This document shows positions 12,307-60,391 of a DNA stretch of 64,000 bases, piece after piece (position 1 is the stretch's first letter; each line of letters opens with the position of its first letter). Made by a program: the position numbers and the translations under genes. The stretch comes from Isurus oxyrinchus (taxonomy: Eukaryota), in contig JANJGN010000034.1 of assembly GCA_026770705.1 (NCBI GenBank), forward strand, positions 6,882,001-6,946,000. The letters run 5' to 3'. The notes beneath the pieces were generated by a model. It made no database searches and was not told the DNA's origin. It saw only the letters and a program-made list of their open reading frames with translations.

Positions 12307-12333
12307 AAAAACAGTTGAAAGCAAAAGAAGAAG
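12307..12333 (+). CDS. 27-nt microexon EKQLKAKEE
   Basis: ccgttacag|...|gtaatt; phase 1-1; repeat consensus. Confidence 0.85.
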
Positions 12334-12847
12334 GTAATTATTTTTGAAATTCGGAGCATACAAACGAATCTGAACATTAATGTTTTCCCTTAGGCAAAAC
12401 GACTAATGCCCGATTAGTGACATCCTCGCCTGCAGCCGAGTTACTTGGTGGCTACAAGGCCCACTGCAATAAACTGGGAACTCTGGGTGGGTCTACAGAA
12501 AGTGTGTAGTATGCCTGAGGTTCAATTATTCACACAATACCTTGCACCACGACAGGACCTGTACTGTCAGGGTGATGAAAAGGAAATATTGCCATAATTT
12601 GAAACAATTAGAGGGGAATTATACTTGGCTTCTTATCCAACAGTTGTTCCTCAACCAACAAAACACACCATCTGCTCAATAAGTAGTTATTACTTGTCGG
12701 ATAGTTTTTTATGCACACTGACGAAAATTCGATGTTACCATAGCGAGGCCTTTCTGTTTAATAAATTAAACATTTTCAGAGTTGAATGCGCTGTAAGAAA
12801 TGTATTTTAAGAATAAGTTTGTTGACACATTTACTTATATTTTCCAG

Positions 12848-12883
12848 AACTTGAAGCATGTCAAAAAATGTTAAAAGATTTAA
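12848..12883 (+). CDS. 36-nt microexon ELEACQKMLKDL
   Basis: ttatattttccag|...|gtgagg; phase 1-1; repeat consensus. Confidence 0.88.
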
Positions 12884-13019
12884 GTGAGGAAAAAATAATA
12901 ATACTGTCTCTTCAAACACTGATAGAAATGTGATTGCAGTATAATCGGGCAGCATATATTTGTCCACTCCTTGTATGCCCTGTTAGACATTAAGATCTAT
13001 GTAAATGCGACGTAATGTC

Positions 13020-13790
13020 TAAAACAGGCAGGAATTATACAGTAAATTGCAGGACCCTTAAGAGCATTAACGGCAGAGGGATCAGGGTGTACAGGTCCAC
13101 AGGTCACTGAAAGTGGCAAAGCAGATAGATAAGGTAGTCAGGATGGCATATGGCAAGCTTGGCTTAATTGGCAGGTGCATGGATTATAAAAGCACGGAAG
13201 ACATCATGCAGCTGTATGGAACCTTGGTTAGGAAGCAAATTGAATATTGCATGCAATTCTGGCCGCCACATTACCAGAAGGATATGGAGGCATCAGAGAG
13301 GTTGCAGAGGAGGTTTGCCAGGATGCTGCATGGCCTGAAAGTTATTGGCTATGAGGAGGTGTTTGAGAAACTCGGATTGTTCTCACTAGAGCGACGGAGA
13401 TTTAGGGGCGACATGATACATGTTTACTAAATTATGAGTGGCATGGACAGAGCAGATAGTCATCAGTTTTTTCCCAGGGTGGAAGAGTCAATTACTAGTG
13501 GACATAGATTTAAGGTGAGAGGAGAAACCTATAGAGGAGATGTGCGGTGCAGGTGTTTTACGCAGAGGTCAGTGAGTGTCTGGAATACGCTGCCTGTGGA
13601 GCAGGTGGAATAACATACGATAGAGGTGTTTCAGAGGCAGATTGACAAATACATGAACAGGATAGGAATGGAGGGATACAGGTCCCGGATGTTCAAAATG
13701 TTTTAGTTGACAGGCAAAATGATCAGCGCAGGCTTGGAGGGCCGAATGGCCTGTTCCTGTGCTGTACTTTTTTTTTTCTTTGTTCTTTGT
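13020..13790 (+). mobile_element. CR1-type LINE 3' fragment
   Basis: LYGTLVRKQIEYCMQFWPPHYQKD..ERLQRRF..LGLFSLERRRFRGD; tail ggccgaatggcctgttcctgtgctgt. Confidence 0.92.
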
Positions 13791-14039
13791 TAAATCATTG
13801 CAGCTTAATTTCTGTCAGTTTCTTTGCAAATATTTCTCTAAACTTAGCGCAATAAGCATCTTCTAATTGTTCCTACCTCATAGATGTCCTCAGTTTTCCA
13901 ATATATACACCTTAACAATACCCTTCATCAGCTAAATTTGCATTTTGAACACTTTCTGTGTTCAGAGTTTTCCACTGAAATCTTTTCATTGTTTGGCGTC
14001 GGTTCACCATTTAAACTCCGTTGATTTGTTCCATGCCTT

Positions 14040-14376
14040 GGGCAGAAATGTACGGCCCCGTCACGGTGGGGGCGAGGCTGTAAAATGCAGTGAGCTGTCC
14101 AAAATCTATTACCTATAGCAGGAAGGTAAAATCCCACCGCATATAAGCCTACCCTACAAGTTGAAAGATTGGGCTCAATAAATGATCGTGCTGCGATGGC
14201 GGGTTCTGCACCCAGAAGAAGTGTAGTTCTGACTTCCAGGCCCACCGTCTGCACCCACCTTATACTGGCCAAAGGCAAGGGGATTTTAATATTCCGCCAA
14301 AGTCAATGCAGGATAGAATGGCATGCCGCATTTTACGGCTGAGTTCTCGCCCCGACGGGGCTGGAAAAGTCTGCCC
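14040..14376. mobile_element. Harbinger-type MITE
   Basis: TIRs GGGCAGAAATGTACGGCCCCGTC and GACGGGGCTGGAAAAGTCTGCCC. Confidence 0.75.
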
Positions 14377-14448
14377 TCTATATTGATTGCCACAACTTAG
14401 CAGCAAGGGCTGTTTGCAGGCTGTCTTCCAACCCAGTTAGTACTAGAG

Positions 14449-15252
14449 GGCGGGATATCAGGTCTCTGAGGCTGCAGGCGTGGCTTGGAACAAAGTAACG
14501 GCCAGCAGTTTAAGAGCCCACTGGCATGGGGCAGTGTTAGATTACCCGTGAGATGATCAGTCTAGTCATTCTGCTGTACACAGAGAAGGTTTGAATGTGG
14601 CATTATTTTAAAAAAATAAGCAAGTCTCCCAATTTTGGCATTGAGGAGCTGTGCATAAATATAAAGCTTCCATGCATAGATTTATTTGCCATTGGAGGGA
14701 GGGGAGAGTTGTTGTGGAATGCAGAAAGCTGGCCCAAGATCCATTGAAGCTTTTCTGATGCCCTCTTCCATGCAGCATATGTTCAACGTGGTTAACTCAT
14801 GCAAAGCAGTGGGAAAAGGAGGGCTAGAAGTTCACCAAACCCCTTCAGCAGCATTCGCAGTACTTATTACAGAAGTCATTGCCATATTAAGGCATCATTG
14901 GTGTCACGGCCAAATGTTTGCTCATGACCAGTGCCATCGGCAGGACCATTGCTTTGGCCCGTCAACTCATTCTAGCCTGCGGCATTAGAAAATTGCCCTC
15001 CATCTGGTTTAACAGTATCCTTCGAAGGTTATATTCTGGGCTCCAAAGGAAACCACAATCATCGGGGACAGGCGCCAGTGGGAGAACAATTATTAGACTC
15101 CAGAGCAGTCCAGTCACAGGGATGGCATTTTTTTGGAGGCCGATGGCCTTCTTCACGTTGGTCCTGGTGCGTAAGTGGTAATGACCCCTGCACAAAACCA
15201 CGGGAAGCGGCCTTTCATTCAATGAAACACGCATCAGCACTGTTTTTCCTGC
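14449..15252. mobile_element. Probable decayed non-autonomous Harbinger-type element
   Basis: gggcgggatat start and tttcctgcc end; GC-richer interior. Confidence 0.35.
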
Positions 15253-16189
15253 CACCGACCGAGTTTTGGGTAGAATTTGATACTTTGCCTTAGACCTCCT
15301 GGAGCTTTTGCTTTCCTAACTGCTCTGTTTTATGATCTAATCAAAAAAAAAATACTGCTAATTTCTCTATAGACGACTTCAAATATGTTATCCTAATTGA
15401 CCCTTCTTGCAAACTGGCCCAATGAAAATAAACATTTAAGAGAGAAACGTCTTTGCATAACAAAACCTTGCCCACTTGCTTTGATTAATCCATGCTCTCT
15501 TCTAAATGCAGAATGATCCTGCACCTCTGATTTTATTTAAGCATATTTTCCCCTCCACGGAGGTGGCATCGATTGTACGTTGCGACACGTTTGAAATTTT
15601 GGCAAAGCGTTACCTCTCCTCCACTTTGTTGGCACTATAAGAATCGCTGGAGGGCATGTTGGTAATAATGGGCCGTGCTCCTGGTATTGATTCTCTTGCT
15701 TTCATAAAATATATAGGCCACTTTTACTTCAACTGGGTCCAGAAATTACGTAATGTTAATGCCCCCTTGACTATTTGAAGTGCATAGAGATTTCAACACA
15801 AGTCATACCTGGTCGGAATGTCATGAAACGAATCCTCCTCTGTGAAAATAGATGCAATGTTTTCATTAAGAACAATACAAACGCCCTCAACATCTAGGGA
15901 AATAATCATGATCAAGCCGAATTGTCAAAATGTGCGTAGATATCCCTAGATATATACGAAGTAAAACGTGAAATGGGCATTATAACCGAAAGTGGAAATC
16001 ACACACCGATCCAACATTTTTGTTCAAGGGAAGGATCCATATGCATAGTATGGAATGTGATGGCTTTGCACAAATATAGCAGTTGAGCTTCGCCACCTGT
16101 CTTATGGACGAACCAAATTGATTTGCGTTGATTGCGTGGAAGATACTCTTGTAAATATTCCTTCTTGTGTATTGTGAAAGCACATTGTT

Positions 16190-16360
16190 TGATGGCAATG
16201 ATGCTGATGGTGATGACGAGACAATTGGATATGTTGATGGGGATGGTAGGCGTTTTTATCGTGATGATGATGAGCAGTTTGCAGATGTTAGTAACCGCAA
16301 TAATGATAATGATGCTGAAGCTGGCTGTGGCGACAATGTGGGATAACAAGGTTGCATGTG
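16190..16360 (+). repeat. Degenerate (GAT)n low-complexity tract
   Basis: gatggcaatgatgctgatggtgatgac...gatgatgatgag...aataatgataatgatgct. Confidence 0.6.
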
Positions 16361-16564
16361 ATGATTACAATATTTTTAGTGGTAATGCTGTGCAGATGAG
16401 CCTGCAGGCACAATGGAAAGATTTTAGAGCAAAAATGAAATAGTTAAAACATTAATATTTCTACGCCTAATCGTCATGGCTTCACGATTGCTTCGACATT
16501 TCTCAAATCCCAACCTTACTTCGTATAAGAATGTCTGAAGGGCTGAACGTTTATATTCATGTAG

Positions 16565-16600
16565 AACGTGGCGATCCAGACAAGCCTGGAGGGGGAAAAG
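16565..16600 (+). CDS. 36-nt Gly/Pro-rich microexon xRGDPDKPGGGK
   Basis: ttatattcatgtag|...AAG|gtcagt; same length and phase as the array exons. Confidence 0.6.
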
Positions 16601-18138
16601 GTCAGTACATTTATTTTCTGAGATAGATATCTTTTCTTGATTGGCAACACTAAATCGACAGTTGTCTTAATGCTGCCGAATAACCTTTCATGTTTATGTC
16701 AATAAAAAAAACATTTCTGTATGATGACGCCCGTTTTATTCCATTATGCCAACATGATTGGCACCCGAGTTCTTTTGAAATTTAGTAAGCAGTTGAAGTG
16801 CCATTCAAGTGAGAGCTGGTCTTCATTATTTACTGTTCAATCAAAGCCTCGATTTTGAAATTCAGATCGTTGTTTTCAAAGTCCACATTGACTTGCACCT
16901 TAATAGTTCTGTAACACCGTCCAGCCACCAACTCTTGGAGACATAAACCTTTGCGTATACCAGTAGTAGCAAGTAAACTAACTAACAAATGAAAAACAAA
17001 GTGAAAAGTTAACAACCCTTCAAAGCGTGGTGCCATAACGTCAAAATAGTAAATGAACACTATCAAGCCCAGTGAAAATAAAGTTCCTGCTGCTATTCAG
17101 GCAAGCTAGCCCCAGGGGGCACACCAGCCGCAGAAGGAATCTAGCAAACCAGCGGACACTCCATGTTCTCTCTCGCGAAATACCTGCGCTCAAACCTAGC
17201 GTCCGAAAAGAGCAAGCAGTTGGTCCGAACGACAGCCCTTGCCTCCAACTCTTAATGGCCACATTGGTCATATCCAGGAACAGACTAACAAGGATATTCT
17301 CCACTTTGCACTGCAACCTGTTCAACGAATGGCTACAGATCAGGAGCATGAGTTTGGTATGTCTATGAAACTCCTTAATTTTCTACTGCACCTCACTGCT
17401 ACTGAAACCTCCTGCACGCAATATCTCCAATGGTAAACAATCGAAGATAAATCCCTGCAGCTAATTCTGAGCTTTTGAGAATTCACGATGTATGTTATTC
17501 CACCATTGGCTGCCTTGCCTCCATAATGAGGCATTAACCTCCAGCAGAACCGGTCTGGCATGATGTAATTCATCTGGAGCAGCCTCTGGAACAGCCAATA
17601 TTTGACGCGAAACAAGCCACTCCACAAAGAGCCATATGGATCAATAAACACCATTTTGAACATGGTTTACCCATATCTGACCTCAACACTTTGACGTAAA
17701 AAATGATGCTATTATCTGATTATTGATTACATTCTTGTTGCAGCTACATTCATCCGAACTGTTTGCAACTATCGTGCGATTTGCAGGGTCGTTTGACATC
17801 CCTTTAATGCCCACTGTTTTTCTAAGCATTTCAGAATCGTACAAAATGTTGTCCGTTGTCTTACTTTGTATTTTCTCTCCAAATGCGTGACCTCATTTAT
17901 TTTAAAATATTGAATGTCAGTTACCACTTTGCTGCTCATATATTCAGACCATTACTATTTTACTCCAGACTGCAAATTCCTCCCTCACAAACAATCCAAT
18001 TTTGTACCAGCAGCAAACTTCTTGCAACCTAATTCGAAAGTATGTACCATGCTGGGGAGTGTGGGAGGTGTTAACAACAATAATTTCTAATTAAATGAAA
18101 CAGCTGCAAAATTCTTTTTTTTTTCTTCTGCATTCCAG

Positions 18139-18174
18139 ATCATGCTGCATGCAAAGTCTTACTGAAAGATCAAG
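18139..18174 (+). CDS. 36-nt microexon DHAACKVLLKDQ
   Basis: Long poly-T acceptor ...cattccag; donor AAG|gtaaaa; Cys at position 5. Confidence 0.85.
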
Positions 18175-19129
18175 GTAAAAATGGCACCATTACCTATACA
18201 TATCGTATTAGCGTATTACACAATTTTTTGTCAATTGTTATGCTGTTGCAGATGATCTGTGCCAGCTAGATAAAATCTACAAGGGAAACTTGGCCCCGCT
18301 TTCACAACAGCTTTGCAACTTGTGTTTATTACGAGATGTGTGCACCTCATAAGTAATGACTCCACTAAGACCGTCGGAGATTTTTTTTCGACTTGAAGTA
18401 AAATATGCATTAACAGAATAAAGGATTCCAAACAGCTACATAAGGCTACAATACATTCTACTAAAATTCCTAATTGTCCTGACTCCCATGTTACCTTATA
18501 GGCAACCAACAATAATAGGTTTTAGTATAAGAAAAGTAAAGCAGGTTAACACAGTACCAACTTGACAGTGGAGATCAAAAAGCTGTACTGGAACTTTAGT
18601 TACTGGAGACAACAAGCATATGCACAAATGGCTGAACTTTCTCCAAGACTATTTCACACATCTCTGTTAGATCTTATGTGGCCCTGCAAAAAAGCCGCCT
18701 GTCCTTCTCCTTTATATACGTTTCCCTATCTTTAATATGTAAAATCCATTGTTTTTCAAATTCCTTATCCCATAATGGAGCAACTTTCACGTCACCAATA
18801 TTGTCAGTAATCTTTGGGAAAAATAAACACTCTGAAGCTTTGCTTATCTGGCTAGTTTTAAACATACTAACAACCCTTTGAAATCCGAATAATCCATTCA
18901 ATTAACTAAAATCCAAATTTCCTTCACACTTTCCAAGCTAAGGCAGTATTTCTAATTACTCATTAGCCACACAAGTAATTTTTTACGCCTAATTTATTCT
19001 GATAATTTTGATAATTAGGCTTGCAATCTACCTGACTCAAACGTATTTAAATCACAGAGGCAGAATAATTTATACTCACGCCCAGAAATCTCCTTTACAA
19101 CTACCCGGAAAATAATAGGATTTACTTAA

Positions 19130-22050
19130 CAGAATGGATATTCAGGGAAAGGAAAGCATGTGTGCGGTGTATTTAGATTTTCAGCAAGGTTTTGATAAAG
19201 TGCCACATAAGATGTTAGTGCATAAAATTAAAGTACATGAACTTCGATGTGTATATTGTCATAGGTTGCGAATTTGATAACAGGCATGAAATACGGAGTA
19301 GGGATAACGGATCTTTTATTCAGAGAAGCAAGTTGTAACTAGTGTGGTACCGCAGGGAGCAGTGCTTGTGCGCCTGCTATTCACAAAGTATATCAATGAT
19401 TGGGATCATGGAAGCAAATGGCTTGTTTCCAAGTTTGCTGAGAGATGAAACTTGGTGAGCATGTAAACAGTGATGAGGGTAAGAAAAGGGTTCGATGATA
19501 TTTAATCACTTTGAGTGGTAGATGTTTCAAGATGATTCTATTGTTGAAAGAATACTTCACGTCGATCTTCACCCTAGAGAACGAGGATGAAGGTAGAGAA
19601 CTCGGGGAGAGAGACTGTGAAGTTTTTAAGCACATTGATATAGGGACTTACAATTATTGGATTTGGTGGCAGGCTTAAAAATGGGCAAATCTCCAGCTCC
19701 GAATGACATGTGTCCCAGACTGCTGAAGGAGGCAAGGGGGGAGATAGCCGAGCTCTGCACCAAATTATTTTATTCGTCTCTGGCCACGGGGAGCTGCCAG
19801 ATGACTAGAGAATAGCTAATCTGGTTCTGCTATCTAAGAATGGTTGCAGAGATAAACCAGGGAACTACAGGCCAGTGAATCTCACGTCAGTGGTCTGGAA
19901 ACTATTGGAGACATTTCTGAAAGGGAGTATCTATCTTCTCTTGGTAGGCAAGGTTTGATCAGGGATAATCAGCATGGCTTTGTCAGAGGAAGGTCTTCCC
20001 TAAGAAACCTCATTGACATTTTTGAGGAGTTGACCAAGTCTGTAGCTGAAGGTTGTGCAGTTGATGCAGTTTATATGGATTTTAGTGAAGCCTATGACAT
20101 TGTCCATCAAGGGAAACTTATAATAAAAAAAACAAAGGTACATGTAAGTTAGAGTAATTGGACAAGGTGGACTTAAAATTGGCATAATTTTAGGAGGCAG
20201 AAGGTGAATGCGGAATGATGCTTTAATGACTGAGAGCCAGTCTCTAGTGGGGTACCACAGGGAACTGTGCATCATTTATATACACGACAGAAATGGCTAC
20301 GTGGACGGTAGTATTAGTGAGTTTGCACATGCCGCAAGGATTGGCTGTGTGGTTAACAGTGAGTTTGAGTGTCTTGGGCTGCATTATATGAAGGCGGGAT
20401 GGTCAGTTGGGCAGATAAGAGGCAGATGGAACTTAACCCAGAAAAGTGTGAGGTGATACACATTGGAATGAGTAATTTGACAAGGAAGTATTCAATGAAT
20501 GGCATGGCAATAGTAAGTTCTAAGGAACAAAGGGACCTTGGTGTGGATGTCCATAGATGTCTGTAGGCAAAGGGGAATGTTAGTGGGGTAGTGAAAAAGG
20601 CATATGGGACACTTGCCTTTATTAAGCAAGGCATAGATTACAAAAGTAGGGATCTGTTCATGAAGCTGTATAGAACTTTGGTTTGGCCACAGCTGGATTA
20701 CTGTGTACAGTTCTGGTCGCCACATTACAGGAAGGATGTGACTGCACTGGATGGGGTGGAGAGGAGATTCACCCCATGATGTTGCCTGGGATGAAACATT
20801 TAAGTTATGAAGAGAGCTTTGATAGACTTGGGTTGTGTTCGTTGGAGCAGTGAAGATTGAGGGAAGACTTGATCGACGTGTACAAGATCATGAAGGGCAT
20901 GGAAAGGCTGGATAAGGAGCAGATGTTACACTTAGTTGAAAGGTCATTCACAATGTAGCACAAGTTCAATGTGAGGGCAAGGAGATTTAGGGAGATGTGA
21001 AGCAAACTTTTTTACCCTGACGGTGGTGATGATCTCGAATGGACTGCCTGGGAGGGTGATGGGGGCTGGTTTCCTCACATCCATTAAAATGTACCTGGAT
21101 GAGCACTTTGCACATATTACATTCAAGGCTATGGGCGAAATGCTGTAAATGGGATTAGTTAGGCCATGTGTTTCTCACCTGTCGCTGCAGACTAGCTGAG
21201 CCAACGGATGCCTTCTGCATTATGATTCTGTGATTCTCTGAGTGAATGGGAATGTTCATGGCAGATGTGTTATAATGTCGACAAATGTGAACTTATCCAC
21301 TTCAGTAGGACAAAAAGAATGACAAGGTTTTATTCAAATGTTGATATATTAGAAAATGGTGGTATGCAGAGTCACCTGGGTCTCTTTGTAAATAACACTG
21401 AAAGCAGACATGCGGGTGCAGCAATCATTAAAGAAAGGAAATGGTATGTTGTCCTTAATTGCGAGAGGACCACGGTGCAGGAGCAAGATATATTATTGCG
21501 GAAGTACAATGTCATGTTGAGCAGTTTCAGCCTCCATACCCCAGGAAAGATACACTTGCCATAGAGGGAGTGGAACGAAGGTTCACCAGACTAATTCCTT
21601 GGATGGTAGGATTGTCGTATAAGGAAATATTGGGCTGACTCTGTGGACTAGTTTGAAAGAATGAAAGGGAACACCACTCAAATGTATATAATTCTAACAA
21701 GGCTTGACAGACTGGATGCAGGGATTATGTTTCATCTGGCTGGATGTCCTGGAACAAATTATCACTCACTCAGGATATGGCACATGCCATTCAGGGCTGA
21801 GATGAAGAGAAGCATCTTATCTCAGAGCATAGTGAATGTTTGGAATTCTCTACCCCAGGAGGTTGAGGACAAGTCAGTAAATTAAGAAGGGAATACATAG
21901 AGTTTTGGCTTCTGAAGGCATCAACAGTTAGGGGGAGAGAGAGGGGATGTAGTGTTGAGATAGAGGATCAGCCATTATCACATCGAATGGCGGAGCAGGC
22001 TTGATGGCTGATTGAAATGCCCCTGCTTATAATTTCTTTGTCTCTATGTT
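19130..22050 (+). mobile_element. Outer CR1-type LINE (19130-19517 and 21239-22050) split by a nested CR1
   Basis: VYLDFQQGFDKVPH RT motif in the first part; reading resumes at 21239 (WQMCYNVDKCELIHF) and runs to a 3' tail. Confidence 0.85.
19518..21238 (+). mobile_element. Nested 5'-truncated CR1-type LINE
   Basis: NYRPVNLTSV, QHGFVRGRS, YMDFSEAYD, LYRTLVWPQLDYCVQFWSPHY; tail gattctgtgattct; flanked by tgagtg at 19512 and 21239. Confidence 0.9.
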
Positions 22051-22659
22051 TCTGTGTCGACATGTATGTAGAATTGTACTTTCCACACAAGCCTGTTACG
22101 AAAGAAACAAGGAAACGGAAAACAAAATGAAATCCACTCCACTGCCATTGCAAAATTGTAATGCTACAAAGAAATCACTGAACTCGTTTTTCTTCTGTTA
22201 ACGTGCATGAGGAAAATGGGAACACAATGAGCATTGTCCAACACGCACAGTGCTTTGCACCATGTTGTATTTTTGCTCACGTCAATTCGATTAATCTGAG
22301 GTTTTGTTACATTTAGATTCATGCTTTCACTTCGGGTCAACATCCTGATGAATGTATGTGGTGGGCTTGGAAGTGTCACATTGCAGTTATACAACAAATA
22401 AAATCAGGATTTGAGAATCACTTTATAATTATATTCTAAGAAGGGGCATAAATTTGCTTGAGACTAGAGCGTTAATGGCTGATTCAATTTAGTTTTTCCA
22501 AGGAATGAAATCGTCAAAAGGCTAGATAGACATAGACTGTAACCACCGTGTGCAACACTTTTTTCTTAAATGACAATGTAGTAAAATTAAACATATAGCA
22601 TCGACGGATAATTTGAGCAAAAAGTAATGTCCCTTGGTACGACGCAACAATGGAGTATA

Positions 22660-23130
22660 GAAACATAGAATCATAGAAACTAGGAGCAGGAGTATGTCAT
22701 TCGGCACTTCGAGCCTGCTCCACCATTCATTACGATCACAGCTGAACATCCAACTCAGTAGCATGCTCCCACCTTCTTCCCATACCGTTTGATCCCTTTC
22801 ACCCCAAGAGCTATATCTAACTCCTTCTTGAAAATATAGAATGTTTTGTTCTGAACTACTTTCTGTGGTTACGAATTCGACAGGCTCAGCACTCTATGAA
22901 TGAAAAAGTTTCTCCTCCTCTCCGTCCTAAATGCTCTACCCCATATCCTCAGACCGTGACACCTGGTTCTGGACTTCCTCAACATTGGGAACATCGTTCC
23001 TGCGACTACTTTGTCTAGTCCTGGTAGAATTTAATAGATTTCTGTGAGATCCCCCCTCATTCTTCTAACCTCCAGTGGATATGACCCTAATCGACTGAAT
23101 CTCTCCTCGCTTGTCAGTCCCCCATTCCCA
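22660..23130 (-). mobile_element. CR1-type LINE 3' end, reverse
   Basis: catagaatcatagaaactaggagcagga is the reverse complement of the CR1 tail. Confidence 0.85.
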
Positions 23131-23259
23131 GGAACATTTATGACAATCCACAGCAGACACTCGACGTCAACGCGATGTTTAAAAACTGAGACCTTAATTT
23201 TTCGTTATGTGATATTAATGTTAAAATTACCAAGGCGAATAGATGATGCAGATACTGAA

Positions 23260-26231: not shown

Positions 26232-26258
26232 AAAAAGAACTGAAAGCGAAGGTGGACG
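26232..26258 (+). CDS. 27-nt microexon EKELKAKVD
   Basis: ctcaaatgcag|...|gtacgt; phase 1-1; repeat consensus. Confidence 0.8.
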
Positions 26259-26970: not shown

Positions 26971-27025
26971 CATTTGATGGTCATCAAAATAACGTTGCTG
27001 AAACCTTTCATTTTCTTCATGACAG

Positions 27026-27061
27026 GATTGAATGAATGCAAAAAATCTTTAGGAGATTTAG
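27026..27061 (+). CDS. 36-nt microexon GLNECKKSLGDL
   Basis: ttttcttcatgacag|...AG|gtgaga; repeat consensus. Confidence 0.88.
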
Positions 27062-32738: not shown

Positions 32739-32765
32739 AACAAAAGCTAAAAGCAAAAGAGAATG
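32739..32765 (+). CDS. 27-nt microexon EQKLKAKEN
   Basis: tttattcttttgcag|...|gtaatt. Confidence 0.88.
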
Positions 32766-33340: not shown

Positions 33341-33361
33341 GCTTGTTTCATTACATGACAG

Positions 33362-33397
33362 AACTTGCCACTTGCCAGGAAGATCTGATGGACTTGG
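33362..33397 (+). CDS. 36-nt microexon ELATCQEDLMDL
   Basis: ttcattacatgacag|...|gtgaga. Confidence 0.88.
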
Positions 33398-35271: not shown

Positions 35272-35298
35272 AGAAAAAGTTGACATCAAAAGATGACG
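35272..35298 (+). CDS. 27-nt microexon EKKLTSKDD
   Basis: ggtctctttcag|...|gtagtt. Confidence 0.82.
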
Positions 35299-35924: not shown

Positions 35925-35960
35925 AACTCAGTAATCGCAAAGAAGAGCTAGGAGGCATAG
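35925..35960 (+). pseudogene. 36-nt microexon with dead donor and Cys->Arg (ELSNRKEELGGI)
   Basis: ttattttcttccag acceptor; followed by gaggaa instead of gtgaga; TGC->CGC. Confidence 0.75.
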
Positions 35961-37032: not shown

Positions 37033-37059
37033 GAAAAAAATTGAAATTAAATGAAGACC
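37033..37059 (+). CDS. 27-nt microexon GKKLKLNED
   Basis: ggcctttttcag|...|gtactt (weak donor). Confidence 0.75.
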
Positions 37060-37641: not shown

Positions 37642-37677
37642 AGCTCACCAAATGCAAAGAAGAACTAAAGGATTTTG
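37642..37677 (+). CDS. 36-nt microexon xLTKCKEELKDF
   Basis: ttttactgcacgccag|...|gtgtga. Confidence 0.85.
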
Positions 37678-38714: not shown

Positions 38715-38741
38715 CCGAAAAGTTGAAATTAAAAGAAGATG
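38715..38741 (+). CDS. 27-nt microexon AEKLKLKED
   Basis: tactctttttacag|...|gtaatc. Confidence 0.88.
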
Positions 38742-39351: not shown

Positions 39352-39387
39352 AACTTAACAAATGCAAAGAAGCCTTAAAGAAGTTAG
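39352..39387 (+). CDS. 36-nt microexon ELNKCKEALKKL
   Basis: attcctgttcgccag|...AG|gtgaga. Confidence 0.88.
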
Positions 39388-41014: not shown

Positions 41015-41038
41015 AAGATACTGCGAAATTTAAAGATG
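41015..41038 (+). CDS. 24-nt microexon EDTAKFKD (short 27-nt type)
   Basis: ttgttcatttacag|...GATG|gtaatt; sits at the expected place in the alternation. Confidence 0.75.
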
Positions 41039-42489: not shown

Positions 42490-42525
42490 AAATCGCAGAC
42501 TGCAAAGGCTTGTTAAAAAAATCAG
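42490..42525 (+). pseudogene. 36-nt microexon with dead donor (EIADCKGLLKKS)
   Basis: tcatattgcag acceptor; Cys5 kept; followed by ctaaga instead of gtaaga. Confidence 0.75.
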
Positions 42526-44629: not shown

Positions 44630-44656
44630 AAGAGGCTCTGGGTAAAAAAGACAAAG
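44630..44656 (+). CDS. 27-nt microexon EEALGKKDK
   Basis: attctcacag|...AAG|gtaaac. Confidence 0.8.
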
Positions 44657-49719: not shown

Positions 49720-50200
49720 TCCATAGAAGGTTTGTCAGGACGATGCTTGGACTGGAAGGCCTGAGCTATGAGTAAAGATTGGATAGGCTAGCTTTATTTT
49801 CTTTGGGGAACTCAACGTTGAGAGGGGACCTGATAGAGGTCTATACGATTATGAGGGGCATAGATAATGTGGATAGGAAGGCAGTTTTTTCCATTCGTAG
49901 AAGGGTCACTAACCAGGGGGCATAGAAATAAGGTAAGATTTGAAAGGCGAAGAGGGGAGTTGACGAGAATTTCGTTCACTCAGTGATTGATATGAGTCTA
50001 GGCATCACTGCCTGAATCGTGGCTGAGTCAGAAACTTTCGTAAGATTTAACAAGTATTTAGGTAGCGACTTGCATTGGTATGGCCTACTGGGCTGTGGGC
50101 ACAGCGCTAGACAATTGGATTCGTGCAGTCAGATCTTTGTTGACGGGCGCAGACACGATAGGCAGAATGGCCTCCTTCTGTGCTGTAAATGTCTATGGGT
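49720..50200 (+). mobile_element. CR1-type LINE 3' end
   Basis: LRGDLIEVYTIMRGID; tail cagaatggcctccttctgtgctgta. Confidence 0.88.
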
Positions 50201-51238
50201 CTATGGATCTATGTCCGCTTTCAAAGCAGAGCAGTGCAATTTGCAGCACCCAGAAAATAAGTAGTGGCATGATCGAGAATTAATCCTTGTGTCCCAGTTC
50301 ATAGACGCCTGTGTCCAGAAATCATTTAGACGGCCAGCCGACACGTGTGATAGAATAATTTCAAATCTTTTTTTTTTGGAGCCTGCGCTTACCTTTAAAC
50401 ATTTCATTTCAGGTTTTAATAACAGACATCTGAGACATCAGCCTGCGGTAGTTTCTTAGGGAGACGGCACTCATTAGGAAGAGAAAAAAACACGGGGACA
50501 ATATTTCAACCTGTGGTGAGAACAATAATGTGAGATCTTGTCCTGTAGTGTTTTCAGCGAGTTCTCAGAACAGGATGATGCAAAACATTGCATATGCTGG
50601 AAATATGAAACAAAAACCAAAAAATTGGGAAAAGTTCAGCAGATCTAACGGCATAAGTGGAGAAAAAAAGAGTTAACATCTTAGGTCCACCAGCCCCTAA
50701 AATTCATATGTACTCGAAACGTAAACGCTATTTTTTTCTCTCTCGCCACAGATGCTCTAAGGTCAGCTGAGTTTTTACAGCATTTTGTGTTTTTCTCTCA
50801 GGAATGTGGCTGTAAAGCAAAACGTTATGAGACTACTGAAAAGGTGGAAATTTCAAGGGATATCTGTGTGAGCAGTCCTGATGCGCTGAGGAGCAGGGCT
50901 TTTTGTTTGTTTTACCAAAACAGTGCACTATGGTGCCCTGGAGTGCTCGGGCGCCACCTGCTAAATTTACCGGTGGAGTGGCCAGTAAATCCATTGAATT
51001 TACATTAATTGTATGCGCTGTTTAAACTGTAATTTAAACAATTTGTCTGACATATTCAGGTTTAATTTCTACTGATTTTGCTTTGATAATTTCAGGAACA
51101 TTTTGAAAAACGCTAAATATTTTAGTTCTTTTGCACTGCTTCTATCCTTTACGCTAATGGTATCCAGGGGGATAGAAACGAAATTTTATTCGAACATGTG
51201 TGCAATTTAACCCTTAAAATGTAAACTATTTTCCTCAG

Positions 51239-51247
51239 AATTGCCAG
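51239..51247 (+). CDS. Candidate 9-nt microexon ELP
   Basis: ctattttcctcag|AATTGCCAG|gtagca; phase 1-1; 123 nt before the next exon. Confidence 0.5.
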
Positions 51248-51370
51248 GTAGCAATTCATCCTGCACTAAAACTATTATGAGCATACATCACTCATTTCTT
51301 ACCCACGAAATTCTGATGTTTGCAGTGACAGACAGATGCTGGATTTAATATTAATTCTTCTGTGTTCCAG

Positions 51371-51406
51371 AATTCGCTGAATGCAGTAAAGCTTCGAAGG
51401 ATGCAG
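51371..51406 (+). CDS. 36-nt microexon EFAECSKASKDA
   Basis: ttcttctgtgttccag|...CAG|gtccga; Cys5. Confidence 0.8.
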
Positions 51407-52731
51407 GTCCGAAAATTCGTCATACTATTTTTTGGACGTTCTGCCCTAAAAACTCCCATTTCTTCAATTATCATGTTTTTCCTTTTCTAGTGGAAATGAT
51501 TGTAAGGTACCAGAATTGAACGGTGGCAGCTTTCAAGTGTCGAGGAGAATTCTTAATCCCGTGCTTTTTCACATTCCTGTTTTGTGGTGAAATTGGAGTG
51601 AAAATACAAGGTGTTTATCGATGCAAATAAATAATTTCACAAGGGCCCAATTTAAAGATTTATGCGCCTCATACCAGAACTGCCTGAATGCCTGGTTTGT
51701 CAGTAAAGGCTGAATTAACTTAGGCTCTTTCCTCGAGCGCAGAAATGGCCAAGCAAGGGACATTAAAATGACGAGGGATGTTTACAGGGTGGGAGTAGAG
51801 GTGCTTCAGTTAAGAAGCACCAATTACTGATATCAGAAATGCGACCTCCACTAATGAATAAAGGAGGGAATTCAGGTGGAACATTCTTTACACGGGGAGC
51901 GGTTGCAATTTGATTATCTTTCCCACGGGTTTCCATTGAGAAATAAGCCTGCGTGCATTTAAGTGCATTTGGTCGAGCACAGACAGAAGAGTTGTAGAGT
52001 CAATGCAAACCTATGTTGCGGGTAACATCTAATTAAGTGTCTATTTGTTGCAGTTCTGCCTTGCCGGTCCCATGAAGTGAAGGAAAGCGGGAATTATGTA
52101 GCTTATACATTGGACAGGCAGGTCGACACCACCTGTGTTAGTGTTGGTTTCTCAAGGAGGATTTTCATGAGGTGCCAACGAATTTAATGCTAAACCCCAG
52201 TATAGCCGTGTGGAAATATATAGAACAAACGAATCTGTGCATCATTTCTGTTTCCATAGTTTTAGAAATCGCTGATTTTTTTATTGATTTATTGGGAGTT
52301 TACGCTTGTCCCTGCCATGAGATCATTTTGCATCCCGTTTGGAAATTCCCTTGGGAAATGGGTTGTGAGTCTCCTTCTTGAACATCGAGAGGTAGTTGGT
52401 TTGCTGGGCGGAAGAAACAGTTATAAATCAACCCATTTTGTGCATATTTATCGTATTTTCAAAGAGATATTTAAATACTTTATTAAAAGTGTTAGTTCAG
52501 CTTGAACTCACATCTCTGCATCACCGGTACAGGCAGCTGGATTATACCGTAGAAACAGTATTGGAGATGCAAGAACATCTGATTGCTTGTGAATGGATGA
52601 TCATTTAAGAAGGCCTCCATGAATATATCCAACCAGGGTTGGCCATTCCATTTGTGTTGTATAGGAGCATATAAGTGAAATACACATTCATTTACCTGTT
52701 TATTTTAAAGTGACATTTGTCTTTTGAGCAG

Positions 52732-52758
52732 ACGATGAGCTGGAAACAAATGAAGAAG
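52732..52758 (+). pseudogene. 27-nt microexon with dead donor (DDELETNEE)
   Basis: cttttgagcag acceptor; followed by ttgcaa; SINE relic follows as in the other units. Confidence 0.6.
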
Positions 52759-53099
52759 TTGCAATATCTATCTTGGAATGACCTGTTAACAGAAATTGTG
52801 TGCAAGTGTTATTGGTTGGTAGCGTGGAACAGGCTGAGCCGCGAGTTTACAGTACCCAAACCCACTCCAGGCAGTTTGCAAACTAAACTGCGTCAAAGAA
52901 AACCCAGAGCACCACTGCAGTATCATTGTTTAGTGCAGGTGACGCAGTTTCTGATGAGGTGCGAAATCTCGCCTATTCTATCAGATAACAATTAAGCATC
53001 AAACGCTCCTTTATGTAAAAAAATGATTTGCAGTTGTAGCGTCACCTCACTGATTGACATTCCTCAACTATGATTGTAAAATTCTGTCGAAAATACCTT

Positions 53100-54280
53100 T
53101 GAATAGATATCCCATAGCACCAGATTAAATATGGTCAGTGAATTTGAAGTCAGTAGAGAAAGCAGATTGTCAGATTACTTCAAGACAGATTGTGAGAGTA
53201 AGAGTTAATGTCAGTTATTAAGTGTGGCAGCAGTTGGAAATTTGTCTTTGTAGGGGCTCACTTTTCGGGCAACTATAGATCACAATTTGTATTAAGGGTT
53301 GTGACGTCGATATGAAAAAAGGAAGTATCTGGTTTTGCAGATACAGTCAACTTGCACGCTCCAAGCGAAGTGGAATAGGAAAAGCTGAAGAGGACAGCAG
53401 CAATTTAGAGGATAACATTAACAACCTCGTCGATTGTGCAAATAATTGGCAAATGCATTTCAAAAACTGATAAATGATAAAGCATCATGCTTTAGTCGGA
53501 AGGATGGTGAGAACTTATCATTTTTGGAACGTGCAAGTCTTCCAGGGTACGGGAATGAAGGGATTTAGGAGTCTAAGTGCGCCAATCGTTTAAATTCTGC
53601 AGGAGCCTGGCAAACCCATAACACAACAAAGCAAAACACTATGCTTTGTGGAAGATGGATACTTGTGAGAAGTCAGTCATGCTGAACTTACAACGGGCCT
53701 TTGAGTAGAGCCCATTTAGAGGACTGCATTCAATTCTGGTGACAATATTCTATATAATAAAGACATAGAAACAGTGGAGGGTGAAGACAACGTCCAGCGA
53801 ATAATACCAAAAGTATTTTACTGTACATATCAGGAAACGATTAACCAGCTGCATCTCTTTAATCTTGGGTGAAAAAAAGCTATGAATACCAAGAGATGAC
53901 GTAATGGAATCATTTAAATTCGTAAATGTATTGAGTTAGTCGATGCAGAGAGAACGTTTTCTCTCATGGGGAAGAGAATAACTGGAGGTCATAAATAAAT
54001 GGTAGTTATCTAGAGATCGAATAGTAAATACAGCAGAATACTCTTTCCCAAAATCCTCGGGAACATGGGGATTCACTTTAAAGGAAGTGGATAAAGAAAA
54101 ACGTATGCAATTATATAGCATTTATGGGAAGGTTAGACAAGCAAATGATGGGGAAGTGATTTCGAGAGTTAATTGATACATATGCGCATGGATGAGGTTA
54201 CATGTGCAAACTCTTAAGGAAATTGTACTGAAGCATAAACTAGTTGGGCGGCCGCAAGGCCTATTTCTATGCTGTGCAGC
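53100..54280 (+). mobile_element. Highly degenerate CR1-type LINE inserted in a SINE relic
   Basis: WQMHF, RAHLEDCIQFW motifs; tail ggcctatttctatgctgtg. Confidence 0.75.
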
Positions 54281-54617
54281 TGATGAAATCATATTCGTGT
54301 ATGTAATCAGGTTGTTTTCATTCTCACTGATATTTTATTGGGTTTGAGCTCCGAAAGAACAGCCAACTTTAATTGCCCACCCCGAACCGCCGTTGAAAAC
54401 GAGTTGTTAGGTTGCCTTCTAGATTCGTTTTGATCCATGTATTGTAGGTGCACACACGTTGCTTTTCCTGAGGCACGCTAACCACATTTTCGGCTGATGG
54501 CTTCATGCCAATGCAACAGTGACTTCAGGATAAAGTGACTGTAACTCATTTTGGGACATATTGGGTCCCTAAAGACGACAATGTCAAATATGTTTTTTCC
54601 TTTCTTTTTTACTCCAG

Positions 54618-54653
54618 AACTATCTACGTGCAAAAAAACCTTAAGCGATTTGG
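54618..54653 (+). CDS. 36-nt microexon ELSTCKKTLSDL
   Basis: ttttttactccag|...|gtaaga. Confidence 0.9.
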
Positions 54654-55717
54654 GTAAGAAGTTGTTCCGAATTCAAAGCTATGCACAGTTACAGGCCGCA
54701 ACAATTCCTTTAGAAATGAAATTTGCTCTGCTTCCGATTGGCACAGGGCATTTGCCTGTGATTACAAATTTGATGTGTGTATCAAACTATTAACAATGTT
54801 TCAAAAGGCACATCACTTCTGCAGTGCTATTTGCTGAAACTGTGCATCTTGTGACATTAATTTGTACACGAACTACATGTGATCACGTTGGATGTGGTAG
54901 CATATGAAGGTCTGACAATTATCGGCTAATTCATCACGCTTGCTCCATTTCAAAATGGGTCAGGCACAGCACTGGATGCTCGCATCGCATACAAGGTGAA
55001 AAAATTTCATCGGAGAGAGAGAAATAAACAAAAAAAAGGCTAATCGAAGATGAGAGCTTATTCCCGGGGTAGTTATTCTTCCATTCCCTCAGGCGAACAA
55101 AAATATTATAGAATTTCAGTGCGAATTAGTACTCACTGTACAGAAACTTAGGCTATGAATGAAACAATCTATGCCGTACTTAAGAATCTCCGGACATCCT
55201 CCTTGAATTTGTGCCATAATTCAACATCCGCTGCATCATGAAACTACATATCCCAAAGACTGATTATTATCTAAGGAATTAGGAGCAGCAAAAATCCCTG
55301 CCTCTTATTCTTGCAAATGCTAAAATAATTCCCCTTGGTGCACTTAAGCCTGGAATATTGTATTCTACCTGCGTTCCCTATTCGTTTATTTAGTGTATTG
55401 CCTTCAAAAATGTCACTTCTCTGTCGGCACCGAGATAAATAAACCATGGTCTTGGTAAATCAAAATAGCAGGAACCTTTAATCCAGGATTCATACTACAG
55501 CTCTCCTGTGCAAATGCCCCAAACTTTCTGCGTAAGCCGTTAGGATGGAAGGTCACAGCTGTATCCAAGGTATCTTGCAAAGTTAGCGGTTGAGCAAATG
55601 ATAAGCTATGTCCGATTTCACATCTAAATCCCAATAGGCGAGAGCCAAATGATGTTCAATTCCACATTGCTGGAAATAAGTTGATGCTCATGAAGTTAAT
55701 AACTTGCTCGTTTTCAG

Positions 55718-55744
55718 AGGGAAAGTTGGATGCCAAAGGCAAAG
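55718..55744 (+). CDS. 27-nt microexon EGKLDAKGK
   Basis: ctcgttttcag|...AAG|gtcggt. Confidence 0.82.
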
Positions 55745-55994
55745 GTCGGTGCACTCGGTTGTTTATTCTAATTTTCCTTGCGAGTGCTGGTGGCAACGCT
55801 CGAAATCATTGAGAACCCGTGATCGTCCTTGACATATCCGTGAGTCTGCACTCACCAAATGTTGCTTCGTTGTTTTAAAAGATTAACAATTCATGCAGCA
55901 GAACAAAGGTAGTGACGGAAATCAGGAAACATTTCTTGAATAACAAGAGCAAAGCTTAACAAAGCTAAGCAATGATTTCACTTGTTCGACGCGC

Positions 55995-56088
55995 CTCTCT
56001 CTCTACCTCTCTCTCTCTCTTGCCTCATTTCTCTCTCCCTCCCTCTCTCATTCGCTCTCCCTCTCCCTCTCTATCCCTCGCTCCCTCT
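55995..56088. repeat. (CT)-rich microsatellite
   Basis: Imperfect (ctct)n run. Confidence 0.85.
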
Positions 56089-56129
56089 GGTGGTGATCCC
56101 TTACAACTTATGCCCGTTTACATCTATGT

Positions 56130-57010
56130 AGCAGATGTGGCATGTTTGGAAATTGCCACTGAGTGATCCCAGCTAATTTCAGCAGTATACATTGTATATG
56201 ATTCATTTTGTTGCCATAGTGCGTCATTGGTAGAGGGAGAGAGAGAATGATTTAACTTGTGGCTGGGCTGCCAATAACATTGACTCGCTCACCCTAAGAA
56301 GTGTCGAGCTTCATAAGTGTTGTTGATTTTCTGCTGATTCTGCCAAATGGAGGTTATTGCATGACACAAATTATTTGAGCATTCTACATAGTAGACAGGC
56401 TTGGGGGCGTCAGGTGTTGAGTTAGTAACCCCTTATCTGTTCTGGTTGCCCGACCATTTATATGTCCGTTGCAGTAAGTTTCCACTTACTGACATCCCAG
56501 AGAAAGATAATTCTGGGGGATTCAGCCAAAGCAATGCGAGTAAATATAAAGTGACTTGGTTACATTCTCTCCTGCTGGAATAGGACTTTGTCTCGCATGC
56601 AAATATCACTTGCCACCTTTCGGCGATAGCCTGAATATTGCTCAGGACTTGTAAGGTATGGCTTCAATATAGGGGAATAGCTAATTTTACTGGACATGTG
56701 CACTCATCAGCACACTTCCACATTTCAATGAAGGAGCTGAAGCTGGATTGGCTTAGGGTGCTTACCTGAGGAGATCCTGCAGTGATGGACGTGACTCAGG
56801 TGATTGCCCTCCAACAGAAGTTAACATCTTTGTGTTAACTTTGACTCGAACCAGTGGAAACCTCCCCCCCCACTCCCACGCTTCACATTGTCTTCAATTT
56901 AGTCTGGGCCCTATTGTGCAATCCTTGCTCAAATGCTGCATTGGTGTCAAGAGCAGTCATTCTCACTCCATCCCTTGTGTCCAGATTGCAGAGAACTCTC
57001 AGAGAGCACC
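56130..57010 (-). mobile_element. CR1/L2-group LINE fragment, reverse
   Basis: Reverse-complement similarity to 39690-40430 (e.g. aagtgtcgagcttc, cacttgccacctttcggc). Confidence 0.65.
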
Positions 57011-57690
57011 CCGGAAAATACACATCCTGTTCCTTTTTATACATATTTAACCTGTACATGAACTTTCAGTCTCATTTCCCTTAGGCCACCTCTAAGAAAA
57101 TTATTTCAGGCTCCACAATTGCGCCTTTGCATGTCTATTATGGAAAAATTCATCCATGTTTTTGTGAGCTTAGCACTTGACTGTACAAGTCTTTTGCTGG
57201 CCGCTGTCCAACAACCCACCCTCCTGAATTGCAGCTGCATTGTGTCTGAATATGCACAAACCCCCACTAACACGTTAAATTGATGTTTGTTGCTTCAGTG
57301 TATGCGTAGCCCGAATGTAAGGAATCGCATACATTCTTTTGAAACCCTCCATGTGCTCGCCCCTTCATACCTCCATATTCTCCTACAGTCTTAAAAGTTC
57401 CCTAATACCTGTGTTAATTCAATTTATGTATTTTAATGATTCCATAATTTTTGCTCCTTTGCTTTTCTTGCCTTCAGCTATATAGGCCCCCAGCTATATA
57501 GTTCCCCACCACTACCATGTCCCCCTCATCCTCCGGTCCTCCACCCTAACGCTCATCTGCCCACCCTCCCCCCACCCCCGCCCAATTACTTTATTTTTTC
57601 CTGACAAAGCCTTCATTGAACTAACCTCTTAGACTGAACTTTTGGCCGGCTGCTCTAATGTTGCCTTCTGGATTAAGGATTCTGCAGTAG

Positions 57691-57716
57691 ACGATCAACT
57701 GCAAGACAGAAAAATG
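57691..57716 (+). pseudogene. Decayed 27-nt-type microexon (DDQLQDRKM-like)
   Basis: Begins ACGAT like 52732; downstream ttgaaatatctttctt matches ttgcaatatctatctt; donor reads gaaatt. Confidence 0.45.
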
Positions 57717-60355
57717 GAAATTGAAATATCTTTCTTTGAGCTGACGTGGTTATGTGGTGTTAAATCCACATCACGGTTAAATACAACCAGCATGTTGTCT
57801 ACTGCTTGGGTTGGCCTCTGACAATATCGAGGAATAGTATGGAGTTGCTCCCTGTGTAACGTAGCTTACAGTGAGGCCCAAAAGCATTGACTACTCCCGA
57901 CAAAGGGTATGGATCAAGCATCGTGCAGTCGAGATAACTTGACACCAACGACCTCAATGAACATCGGGACCAATAGTGTATCCTTATGAAAAAAATAGCA
58001 CGTCCGTATTTGGAAAGTTAGAGTTTATGAAGAGTGATTATAAGGAACGATATTGCATGAATTACTGCTCAGCATAGACATAAGACACCTGGAGCGGAAC
58101 ATGATGGCTCCGCCGATCCTGGCTCAGGGCCGTAAATTGCCGCGAGCCATTCAGAAATTTATTAATATCGGCGGGGCCTTTAAATCATGCTAGAGTATAA
58201 TTCTGTCCGTGGCAGGATGACTCGGCGATTCGTGTGTCATCCAGAAGGTCGTAAAATGACAACTAGATGCCATTTCCCTGAAGCAAACCGCAGAGAGGCA
58301 TATTTTAACCAACGTATTCTCTACATTCAAAGCTAATGATGTATTTGGGTATCTGCTAAAGTCGGTTGCCAATTTCATTATTATTAAAAGAATGAGAATG
58401 TGAAAGGCCTCAGTTTCTCCAGCAAACCACAGCCGAATACCGTTACAATCAGCTTGGATGTGCAAAAATGCCTGACTTTATAGCAACATAGGGAGCGATA
58501 TTAATGAACAGATTGTGATTATATATTTACGACTTTCCACAGGCTATCTTGGATGTTTCTCATTCAGCTTTTAAATCAAGGAACATAGTTTCAAGTTCGA
58601 AGCTGAAGGGTGAAGCATGTGATATATCCTGAGATTACTAATGCACGGCTGAGGGACGGCTACACTGTCTTTCAGTTGAGATGCTTTGCACTGGATGTAA
58701 AAGTTTCCCAGGGAGCTCTTAGGTATTAAAGAAGGCAGCCGCCATCCCCCACACCACCTGTTCTACGTACATAAAATTCCTCGGTACACAGGTCAATCGC
58801 TGTTTAACTAGTTTCTCCCTGAGTGTTATTTAAAGCAGTATTGTAGCCCCTTGCCCAAACAACAACAGTTAGACATGTTTTTAAAGTTTTATTTATTTTC
58901 TTTATTCTGTTTCCCTTTTGCCTTGTTGCCTCCCTTCCTCCCCTCATTTGTTTCCCCTTTGTTCCTTCTTTCTTTCAATAATTTGTTATGTTCCTTCAAT
59001 TGGACATGGGATTCGAGTGTTATGGGGTCGAGACAGAAAATTGGAGCTAAAACCACCATCAGATCAATCATAATCTTACTTAATCATGGAGCAGGCTCGA
59101 AGGTTTAACTGGCGTGCTCCTGTTCCTATGTCCATATGGACTTCATTTCTCACTTTATCTTTATAATTCCTCCCTCACGTTGTTCTGTTCGATATTCAAT
59201 CTTATCTTCCTTTTTTTTCCTTTCGTTTCTGCAATCCCTCTTTCTCCATCTGGCTATCTCTCCCTTCAGCATCTTGCCTTGTTCGATCTTTAGTAGGGAA
59301 GGTGAATTGGAGGTCCAGAAACCAAGGACACAGGGTCACAATGAGTTCATTTCATTTTATTCTTTTACCTGAAAAAGGTGAAGGGAATTCTATTTAAGCG
59401 TCATCAATCCAAGCCTGTTTGGTTATCCTTAAATGTATTTGTTTCCACTTAACAGTTATAAAGACCTATTGAAGAGTATAATCAATGAAAGTGGTAGTGT
59501 TTCTGTTATGTCATATCCTATATTAAACTTGACTCCGTTCATGGTGCCTTTTCCTTGATGTTTGGAAATTATTATTTCGAGTCCCAGCACACATACTTGA
59601 GCAGTAGTATGGGACGGGCACCATGGAAGAAAAGTGCTACATAAGCTATGGAAAGCGATGCAAGACAAAATAGTAAGAATGTTACTTTAAAAAACGTTTA
59701 TAACTATCGGAGGAAATGTAACATGTGTGAAGTTATTTCTCTGTAAATAGAACAGTCAGTTCGGCCGTGAAAATGCTTCAGCAACCTGACAGAGCACCCT
59801 AAACAAAGCTCACTCCAGTGCTGGGGAATTCAGAACTAGGACCAGAAAAATAACCTGATAAGGTGTAAACTTCGGGGCAATTTATTCGGAAACCTGTGTG
59901 TTCAAATAACGCACAGAATGAGGACCGTTTTGTGAAATGGCCAGAGTGAGCCGAAATCATGCGTTAATTTAATCAGAAACTGGGTATTGTTGAAAAAAGA
60001 TGTTCTTTTGTCGAAGTTTCTCGTCTATATTTTGCAAGGCAAAAAGCTTCCAAAAATTGCTTTTTTTTCAGCAAGATTCAAGGTTATGTACAGCAAACCA
60101 AACTACAATTGTATAACATAAACTAGATAAGTGCGAGAGGAAGAAAGGGAAATCCAGAAAATATTGATGCATTTTTCAAGTGGAGGTAGCTGGTGTGAAG
60201 CGTGGTCACGCAAACGGGCCAAATTGACCAAATTATCTCTTTGAACGCTGTTAGTCCTGTGAAAGTAGATATGTACTGCGGACTCAGTATACTTTACCAA
60301 ATAATCCCTGTCAGTTGAAATATGCATGTTATTTTTTCCCATCAATTTACCACAG

Positions 60356-60391
60356 AGTTGAAGAAATGCAATGAGTCCTTGAAAGATTTGG
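60356..60391 (+). CDS. 36-nt microexon ELKKCNESLKDL
   Basis: atttaccacag|...|gtgaga. Confidence 0.88.

Follow-up and report, generated by a model that had tools for sequence, protein, structure and literature searches.

Microexon-encoded heptad repeats with a constrained core cysteine and a terminal B30.2 exon in Isurus oxyrinchus: a possible secreted coiled-coil rod

The 64,000-nucleotide (nt) stretch analysed here (the window; Isurus oxyrinchus, contig JANJGN010000034.1, hereafter C34, 6882001-6946000, in a genome of 4.98 Gb) lies in a predicted gene of ~1.04 Mb, named gene C, which continues past the window to a terminal B30.2 exon. C34 was taken whole from 6.31 to 7.61 Mb, with samples from elsewhere; exons were found by six-frame and profile scans, and splicing is predicted from sequence alone. 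The window holds 12 long (36-nt) and about 10 short (27-nt) phase-1 segments bounded by AG and GT, all on the plus strand, with profile scores far exceeding the reverse-strand maxima. A long exon encodes ELxxCxxxLxxL and a short one ExxLxxKxx, and their alternation gives a unit of 21 residues, or three heptads, with a and d at positions 2, 5, 9, 12, 16 and 19 (spacing 3-4-3-4-3-4) and a cysteine at position 5 (Cys5). The exons, in window coordinates, are as follows.

4790..4825, + strand, long 36-nt microexon; donor dead (TT), Cys5 kept, paralogue copy likewise TT; outside the range (12307-60391) of an earlier sequence-only reading
12307..12333, + strand, short 27-nt microexon, AG..GT
12848..12883, + strand, long microexon, Cys5 (TGT)
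18139..18174, + strand, long microexon, Cys5; no short exon found between 12848 and 18139, hence a register break
26232..26258, + strand, short microexon
27026..27061, + strand, long microexon, Cys5
32739..32765, + strand, short microexon
33362..33397, + strand, long microexon, Cys5
35272..35298, + strand, short microexon
35925..35960, + strand, long microexon; donor dead (GA), Cys5 replaced by Arg (CGC); the paralogue's dead copy has Cys
37033..37059, + strand, short microexon, Asn at position 19
37642..37677, + strand, long microexon, Cys5
38715..38741, + strand, short microexon
39352..39387, + strand, long microexon, Cys5
41015..41038, + strand, 24-nt variant of the short microexon, AG..GT
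42490..42525, + strand, long microexon; donor dead (CT), Cys5 kept
44630..44656, + strand, short microexon
51371..51406, + strand, long microexon, Cys5
52732..52758, + strand, short microexon; donor dead (TT)
54618..54653, + strand, long microexon, Cys5; in the paralogue this exon is dead and its Cys lost
55718..55744, + strand, short microexon
60356..60391, + strand, long microexon, Cys5
61393..61419, + strand, short microexon; donor after 27 nt lost, use of an internal GT would shorten the exon to 21 nt

A weak long-exon match at 20291 was rejected as an exon; it resembles a transposon fragment. Intronic fragments at ~13030-13760 and ~20230-20360 resemble what we take to be reverse-transcriptase repeats of long interspersed nuclear elements.

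Periodicity was tested by Fourier analysis and permutation in place of a COILS-type matrix. In the nine intact long and eight intact short exons between 12307 and 60391, hydrophobic residues fill 40 of 52 a/d positions and 7 of 128 others, a bias with a column-permutation P of 0.002 (17 intact full-length exons), and the three-heptad unit proposed by the sequence-only reading is upheld. That reading also counted Cys5 in 11 of 12 long exons, a figure reached only when the exon at 4790 is included, as 12307-60391 alone gives 10 of 11. The Cys5 codon is TGC or TGT, and its single loss, to CGC at 35925, does fall in a donor-dead copy (GA), as had been pointed out. The argument built on this loss is nevertheless weak: the dead copies at 4790 and 42490 retain Cys5, the difference between live (9/9) and dead (2/3) long exons gives a Fisher p of 0.25, and among the paralogue's dead copies five retain Cys while one further copy has lost it. 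Beyond the window, splice-intact copies also lack Cys5 (69859 Tyr, 90777 Met, 116968 Leu, 168291 Phe), which further weakens a tie between its loss and a dead donor. Taken as a whole, the earlier observation is partly confirmed and its interpretation partly supported.

Between 6.4335 and 7.4964 Mb, the catalogue of gene C comprises 285 microexons (143 of 36 nt, 137 of 27 nt and five of 21 nt; about 2,980 codons), at thresholds that three reverse-strand matches also passed. Ten of the 285 carry non-canonical sites or stops, one of them being an alternative acceptor. The gene ends in the following exon.

C34:7496442-7496959, terminal B30.2 exon of gene C, open, Pfam SPRY 3.4e-12

Its best solved match is BTN3A1 (6e-20), and the closest solved relatives are butyrophilins, TRIMs and pyrin. 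C34 carries four further B30.2 exons of close relationship, at 6.396, 4.817, 3.474 and 2.709 Mb, giving five paralogues; the plus-strand genes are named A (ending at 4.817 Mb), B (ending at 6.396 Mb) and C, with genes A and B covered only in part. Against gene B, the B30.2 exon of gene C differs at a proportion of 0.038 of nonsynonymous (pN) and 0.103 of synonymous (pS) sites. In the databases, homologues are present as automatic models from chimaera, skate, ray and sharks. When long orthologues were sought among shark proteins, there were none at E<=1e-20 among 610 candidates and none among 7990, a further search returned only two chimaera models among 7977 candidates, and an ESM Atlas search gave generic coiled-coil clusters only, below 0.9. 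Guessed-RNA contigs on the B30.2 region covered mostly repeats and are not evidence on expression; the same holds for their cover in bins 6822-7223 near the end of the B30.2 exon, where no repeat was seen within the DNA taken. No such contig covered the signal-like exon of gene B, and a search for RNA data matching 32-40 kb of the window gave no entry; neither bears on expression. On contig C21, 82.9-118.2 Mb carries well over 100 B30.2 exons, of which those at 89.72 and 91.35 Mb score clearly closest to the rod family.

Cysteine placement was counted over 385 splice-intact exons of gene C and of parts of genes A and B. Cysteines are confined almost wholly to heptad d (143 of 146, with two at a), in position 5 of long exons (108), position 7 of short exons (21), position 12 of long exons (12) and 21-nt exons (2). 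Because the exon copies are related, the 146 cysteines are not independent events, and the d pattern may stem from few origins. The zones differ in the slot they use, which is position 5 of the long exon in and after the window, position 7 of the short exon upstream and position 12 of the long exon downstream. Exactly one cysteine occurs in 81 of 110 long-plus-short units, two occur in 2 and none in 27. The proposal of a cysteine every third heptad stands for the Cys5 zone, with 54 of 106 intervals measuring 21 amino acids (aa), but other zones use other d slots or none. The position 5 column is 98% hydrophobic, Leu, Val, Ala or Met replacing Cys in many copies, and the ELxxC motif also occurs in the chimaera model P0039.

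Purifying selection on Cys5, which the sequence-only reading had suspected, is borne out by two comparisons. In 29 live exon pairs of genes B and C, pN is 0.083 and pS 0.208, with introns at 0.177 and a nonsynonymous-to-synonymous rate ratio (dN/dS) of 0.36; in 14 pairs the Cys5 column is free of replacements. In the later array of gene C (47 long and 40 short exons in seven classes, one long exon omitted, neutral rate from the flanks), Cys5 changed once against 7.8 changes expected neutrally, the lowest of 19 columns, and all columns together show 79 changes against 130 expected from the flanks. The tests combined give one change at Cys5 against 14.5 expected neutrally (P=8e-6); against the exon mean P is 0.003, or about 0.06 after allowing for 19 columns, and gene conversion and short trees could bias such counts. 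All 88 catalogued exons of this array keep intact splice sites while their flanks are 9-16% apart. The lysine at position 19, which had been credited with setting the oligomer state, occurs in 33 of 42 short-exon clusters, but its 8.5 changes match the exon average (7.8 expected), and on these counts it appears to be under no special recent constraint.

C34:7010000-7172000 (128-290 kb past the window start) is a young tandem array of exon quartets in higher-order blocks, and gene B has a separate array of ~27-56-kb spacing at 5.92-6.14 Mb. The upstream zone at 6.62-6.68 Mb has three 27-nt exons per 36-nt exon, a 39-residue period which is no multiple of seven. In gene B, six consecutive modules are dead at C34:5828000-5841000, while their gene C counterparts (window 52732 to 69859) mostly keep their splice sites; this run represents reciprocal module loss between paralogues B and C.

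As to geometry, modelling residues 380-475 of the chimaera homologue P0039 in two copies gave a score of 0.49 against 0.00 for the best control, with a contact agreement of 100% and a predicted local distance difference test score of at least 87. Among solved homodimers, 21 of 30 from microbes and 17 of 29 from eukaryotes (7 of 16 from animals) reach the mark that it passed; single chains reach it in 0 of 23 and 0 of 30 cases. The modelled helices are parallel and in register, as had been suggested for the repeat; Cys465-Cys465' and Cys444-Cys444' are among the surest pairs, and Cys402 lies in the interface. Attractive g-e' pairs outnumber repulsive ones by 9 to 1 of 38 and by 10 to 2 of 28, counts given without a null. 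In parallel coiled coils, neighbouring d positions are described as the disulfide-competent pairing, and the centriole protein CEP135 has d-position Cys (excerpt of PMC6146289). Since this example is centriolar, geometry alone does not fix the compartment. Caution is also advised by a Cys-bearing heptad repeat that was predicted as a coiled coil and behaved otherwise in experiments (excerpt of PMC2581425).

Sequence comparison shows that gene C arose by tandem duplication of gene B. Its 6433690-6455835 matches the 5' block of gene B at 4827827-4850373 and then jumps to B's 5091193, an internal deletion of ~241 kb; the junction (C34:6455835/6455840) joins the equivalents of B's 4850373 and 5091193, with a short shared stretch at the join. 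Genes A and B have in common a 111-nt 5' exon with a hydrophobic stretch, AV(I/M)LA(L/I)EVA, at its start, and a genome search with gene B's copy gave no scoring match other than itself. The best candidate for the first exon of gene B, 4840063-4840093, ranks first by donor score among the 16 strong donors of a 42-kb stretch. Gene C has an in-frame Met in its first 21-nt exon. The duplication also carried the leader and immunoglobulin V (IgV) exon of a neighbouring gene with a transmembrane (TM) exon, presumably nectin/PVR-like by its motif:

C34:7510720-7524148, leader-IgV-TM gene, intact, TM exon at 7524026
C34:6421428-6424684, duplicated leader-IgV copy upstream of gene C, IgV broken by a stop and frameshifts, leader open

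The duplicated leader gives no sign of selection, with differences at 9 of its 49 bases. Related V exons occur at C34 13.07-13.73 Mb. The upstream IgV exon was considered as a BG-like ectodomain of gene C and rejected, being a broken copy of a separate neighbour gene.

We put the chances at about even that the family makes a secreted parallel dimeric rod in which d-position cysteine pairs form a disulfide ladder and the B30.2 domain acts as a binding tip. The predicted rod of ~3,000 residues would form a parallel two-stranded coiled coil ending in the B30.2 domain, each d-position Cys pairing with its twin on the other strand to give a ladder of interchain disulfides. With a coiled-coil rise of 0.15 nm per residue, its predicted length is about 430 nm (2,866 aa x 0.15 nm). 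We infer the disulfides from the d-d' geometry, in which stapling of the rod is plausible, and the export from signal-like N-termini in the sister genes and in two database homologues, chimaera P0039 and skate P0151, which start with hydrophobic segments containing AVL. In P0039, residues 17-65 contain RAKR and RRKKR after the hydrophobic start, which we take to resemble proprotein-convertase sites. As gene C has lost its own signal exons, its export would need either transcripts reading through from gene B, the sister gene upstream, or the leader exon, itself intact, that belongs to the broken IgV copy just upstream; both joins are in phase 1. Vespryns offer a precedent for a signal and B30.2 in a secreted protein (excerpt of PMC4566206).

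Several observations weigh against this secreted rod. Within the window, the joined intact exons show three register breaks (two long-long and one short-short) and there are four to five dead modules; the power at period 3.5 is 0.5 in the window join (24-nt variant at 41015 left out) against 16 in the next 66 kb, so that the heptad pattern is a property of the unit and not of an unbroken join within the window. Whole zones carry Leu at position 5, and position 7 (f) likewise has no replacement in gene B/C pairs. The signal-like 111-nt exon lies within the part deleted from gene C, and the candidate first exon of gene B has, in its gene C counterpart, neither ATG nor donor left; Cys5 constraint nevertheless persists in the later array. 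Even in the sister genes the start is provisional, the first exon of gene B being a candidate by donor score and none having been found for gene A. The net charge of P0039 behind its hydrophobic stretch is +6, a value also compatible with a signal-anchor and a cytosolic rod, and the closest solved B30.2 relatives (butyrophilins, TRIMs and pyrin) are cytosolic. N-glycosylation sequons are not enriched (13 against 9.4, P=0.14). The P0039 model uses another species as a stand-in and had its two copies imposed, and its pass may reflect likeness to solved coiled coils or memorised structures.

The next likeliest reading is that the same parallel coiled coil is cytosolic, either soluble (enterophilin- or zipper protein-like) or signal-anchored, its d cysteine being a small core-packing residue, perhaps redox-sensitive and normally reduced; we hold this possible, if somewhat doubtful. 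It would accommodate Cys5 under selection in a gene C devoid of signal exons, the cytosolic B30.2 relatives, the hydrophobic replacements of Cys5, the in-frame Met in the first 21-nt exon and the d-position Cys of CEP135 (excerpt of PMC6146289). Packing alone, however, does not predict that Cys is found at a in only 2 of 146 cases and mostly once per unit, and the signal-like N-termini in sister genes and in two species speak against a cytosolic rod. A trimeric coiled coil with metal sites of three d-Cys thiolates, or acylated cysteines tying the rod to the membrane, seems decidedly unlikely: in designed peptides trimers are favoured when Leu occupies a as well as d, but the core of a trimer would have difficulty accommodating a Lys at every third d position. 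Palmitoylation has been proposed for a conserved Cys in chicken BG tails, but that Cys lies outside the hydrophobic stripe (excerpt of PMC5938342), while the rod Cys sits inside the modelled dimer interface, and the metal binding or acylation that the sequence-only reading had allowed for finds no support from the dimer, the one assembly modelled. Least probable by our estimate, and very unlikely, is that gene C is a decaying pseudogene whose Cys5 is uniform only through recent duplicates homogenised by unequal crossing-over, for although the window's dead donors and missing partners and the lost start exon suit decay, the dN/dS, the near-invariance of Cys5, the 88 intact array exons between diverged flanks and the open B30.2 exon with pN below pS do not, and the motif is common to chimaera, which argues against neutral homogenisation.

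Known systems show parts of this design. Enterophilins combine an extended heptad repeat of about 30 heptads with a C-terminal B30.2 and no Ig domains, and are cytosolic; we know of no Cys ladder in them, and their likeness to the shark rod is one of architecture. The ectodomain of tetherin/BST2 is a parallel coiled coil with interchain disulfides, with three Cys, two membrane anchors and no B30.2; it serves as a functional analogy for the ladder and has no microexon array. In the cytoplasmic part of butyrophilins (BTN3A1, BTN2A1), a heptad coiled coil precedes B30.2 as in the shark rod, and the heptad region before B30.2 lies in small exons as in gene C, where it is about 100 times longer. 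Butyrophilin tails have been modelled as parallel coiled-coil dimers (excerpt of PMC10665462), and the proteins have Ig domains, a TM helix and only a few heptads (excerpt of PMC4046983). Gene C differs in its about 400 heptads, its regular d-position Cys and the lack of an assigned Ig or TM exon, and the N-terminus of its sister genes is signal-like. Butyrophilin-like Ig domains were not found: the upstream IgV of gene C belongs to the broken neighbour copy, and P0039 has only SPRY in Pfam (genes A and B partly covered). No TM-like phase-1 exon was found in C34 6.40-6.47 Mb by a scan that did recover the neighbour's TM exon. Nor were the RING and B-box of TRIMs encountered, P0039 showing SPRY only and the 5' exons of genes A and B being signal-like, in a gene region not scanned with RING/B-box profiles. 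On Ig, TM and RING features, the gene falls outside butyrophilins, BG and TRIMs.

Chicken BG and zipper protein, like gene C, build a long coiled coil from many tiny in-frame exons with copy-number variation, and in BG codons 4 and 7 encode the a and d residues (excerpt of PMC5938342), the same as in the 27-nt exon here. BG has, in that excerpt, IgV, TM, 13-36 exons of 21 nt, a cytosolic tail with a conserved Cys outside the core, and no B30.2; gene C, in contrast, has ~285 exons, mostly of 36 and 27 nt, plus B30.2. Vespryns/ohanin carry a B30.2-like domain after a signal peptide and are secreted, at about 12 kDa and without a rod (excerpt of PMC4566206). The database models XP_042192744.1 (chimaera, 'nuclear-pore anchor-like') and XP_055510696.1 (skate, 'TRIM69-like') are likely members of the rod family, with a hydrophobic N-terminus, rod modules of 12 and 9 residues and a related B30.2, and with ELxxC in the chimaera model. 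They are shorter than gene C and probably incomplete, and their automatic names are at odds with this architecture. No description of the family was found in the open-access literature searched (subscription papers and supplements were outside its scope). By analogy, gene C may work as a butyrophilin or BG tail does, at about a hundred times the size and perhaps on the outside of the cell.

Heptads followed by B30.2 are known as a short cytosolic design in butyrophilins, as are the heptads of BG tails. If the secreted reading is true, this short cytosolic module would have become an extracellular, covalently stabilised rod of hundreds of heptads with a selected Cys at one core position and a start that resembles a signal. 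A more far-reaching version, which we consider improbable as it stands, is that cartilaginous fishes secrete B30.2-tipped rods of 0.4 to 1 micrometre with about a hundred d-d' disulfides, encoded in hundreds of 21-36-nt exons, the signal-less gene C being read through from gene B in a single transcription unit of 2.65 Mb whose B30.2 ends alternate; such a unit would rival the most exon-rich genes known. Gene C lost its signal exons and kept Cys5 constrained, which makes it a test of disulfides against packing as the target of selection, and the gene copies amount to a natural experiment on why core cysteines are selected. As such a rod, the family may be a pattern-recognition or structural protein of sharks, rays and chimaeras which annotation truncates and misnames.

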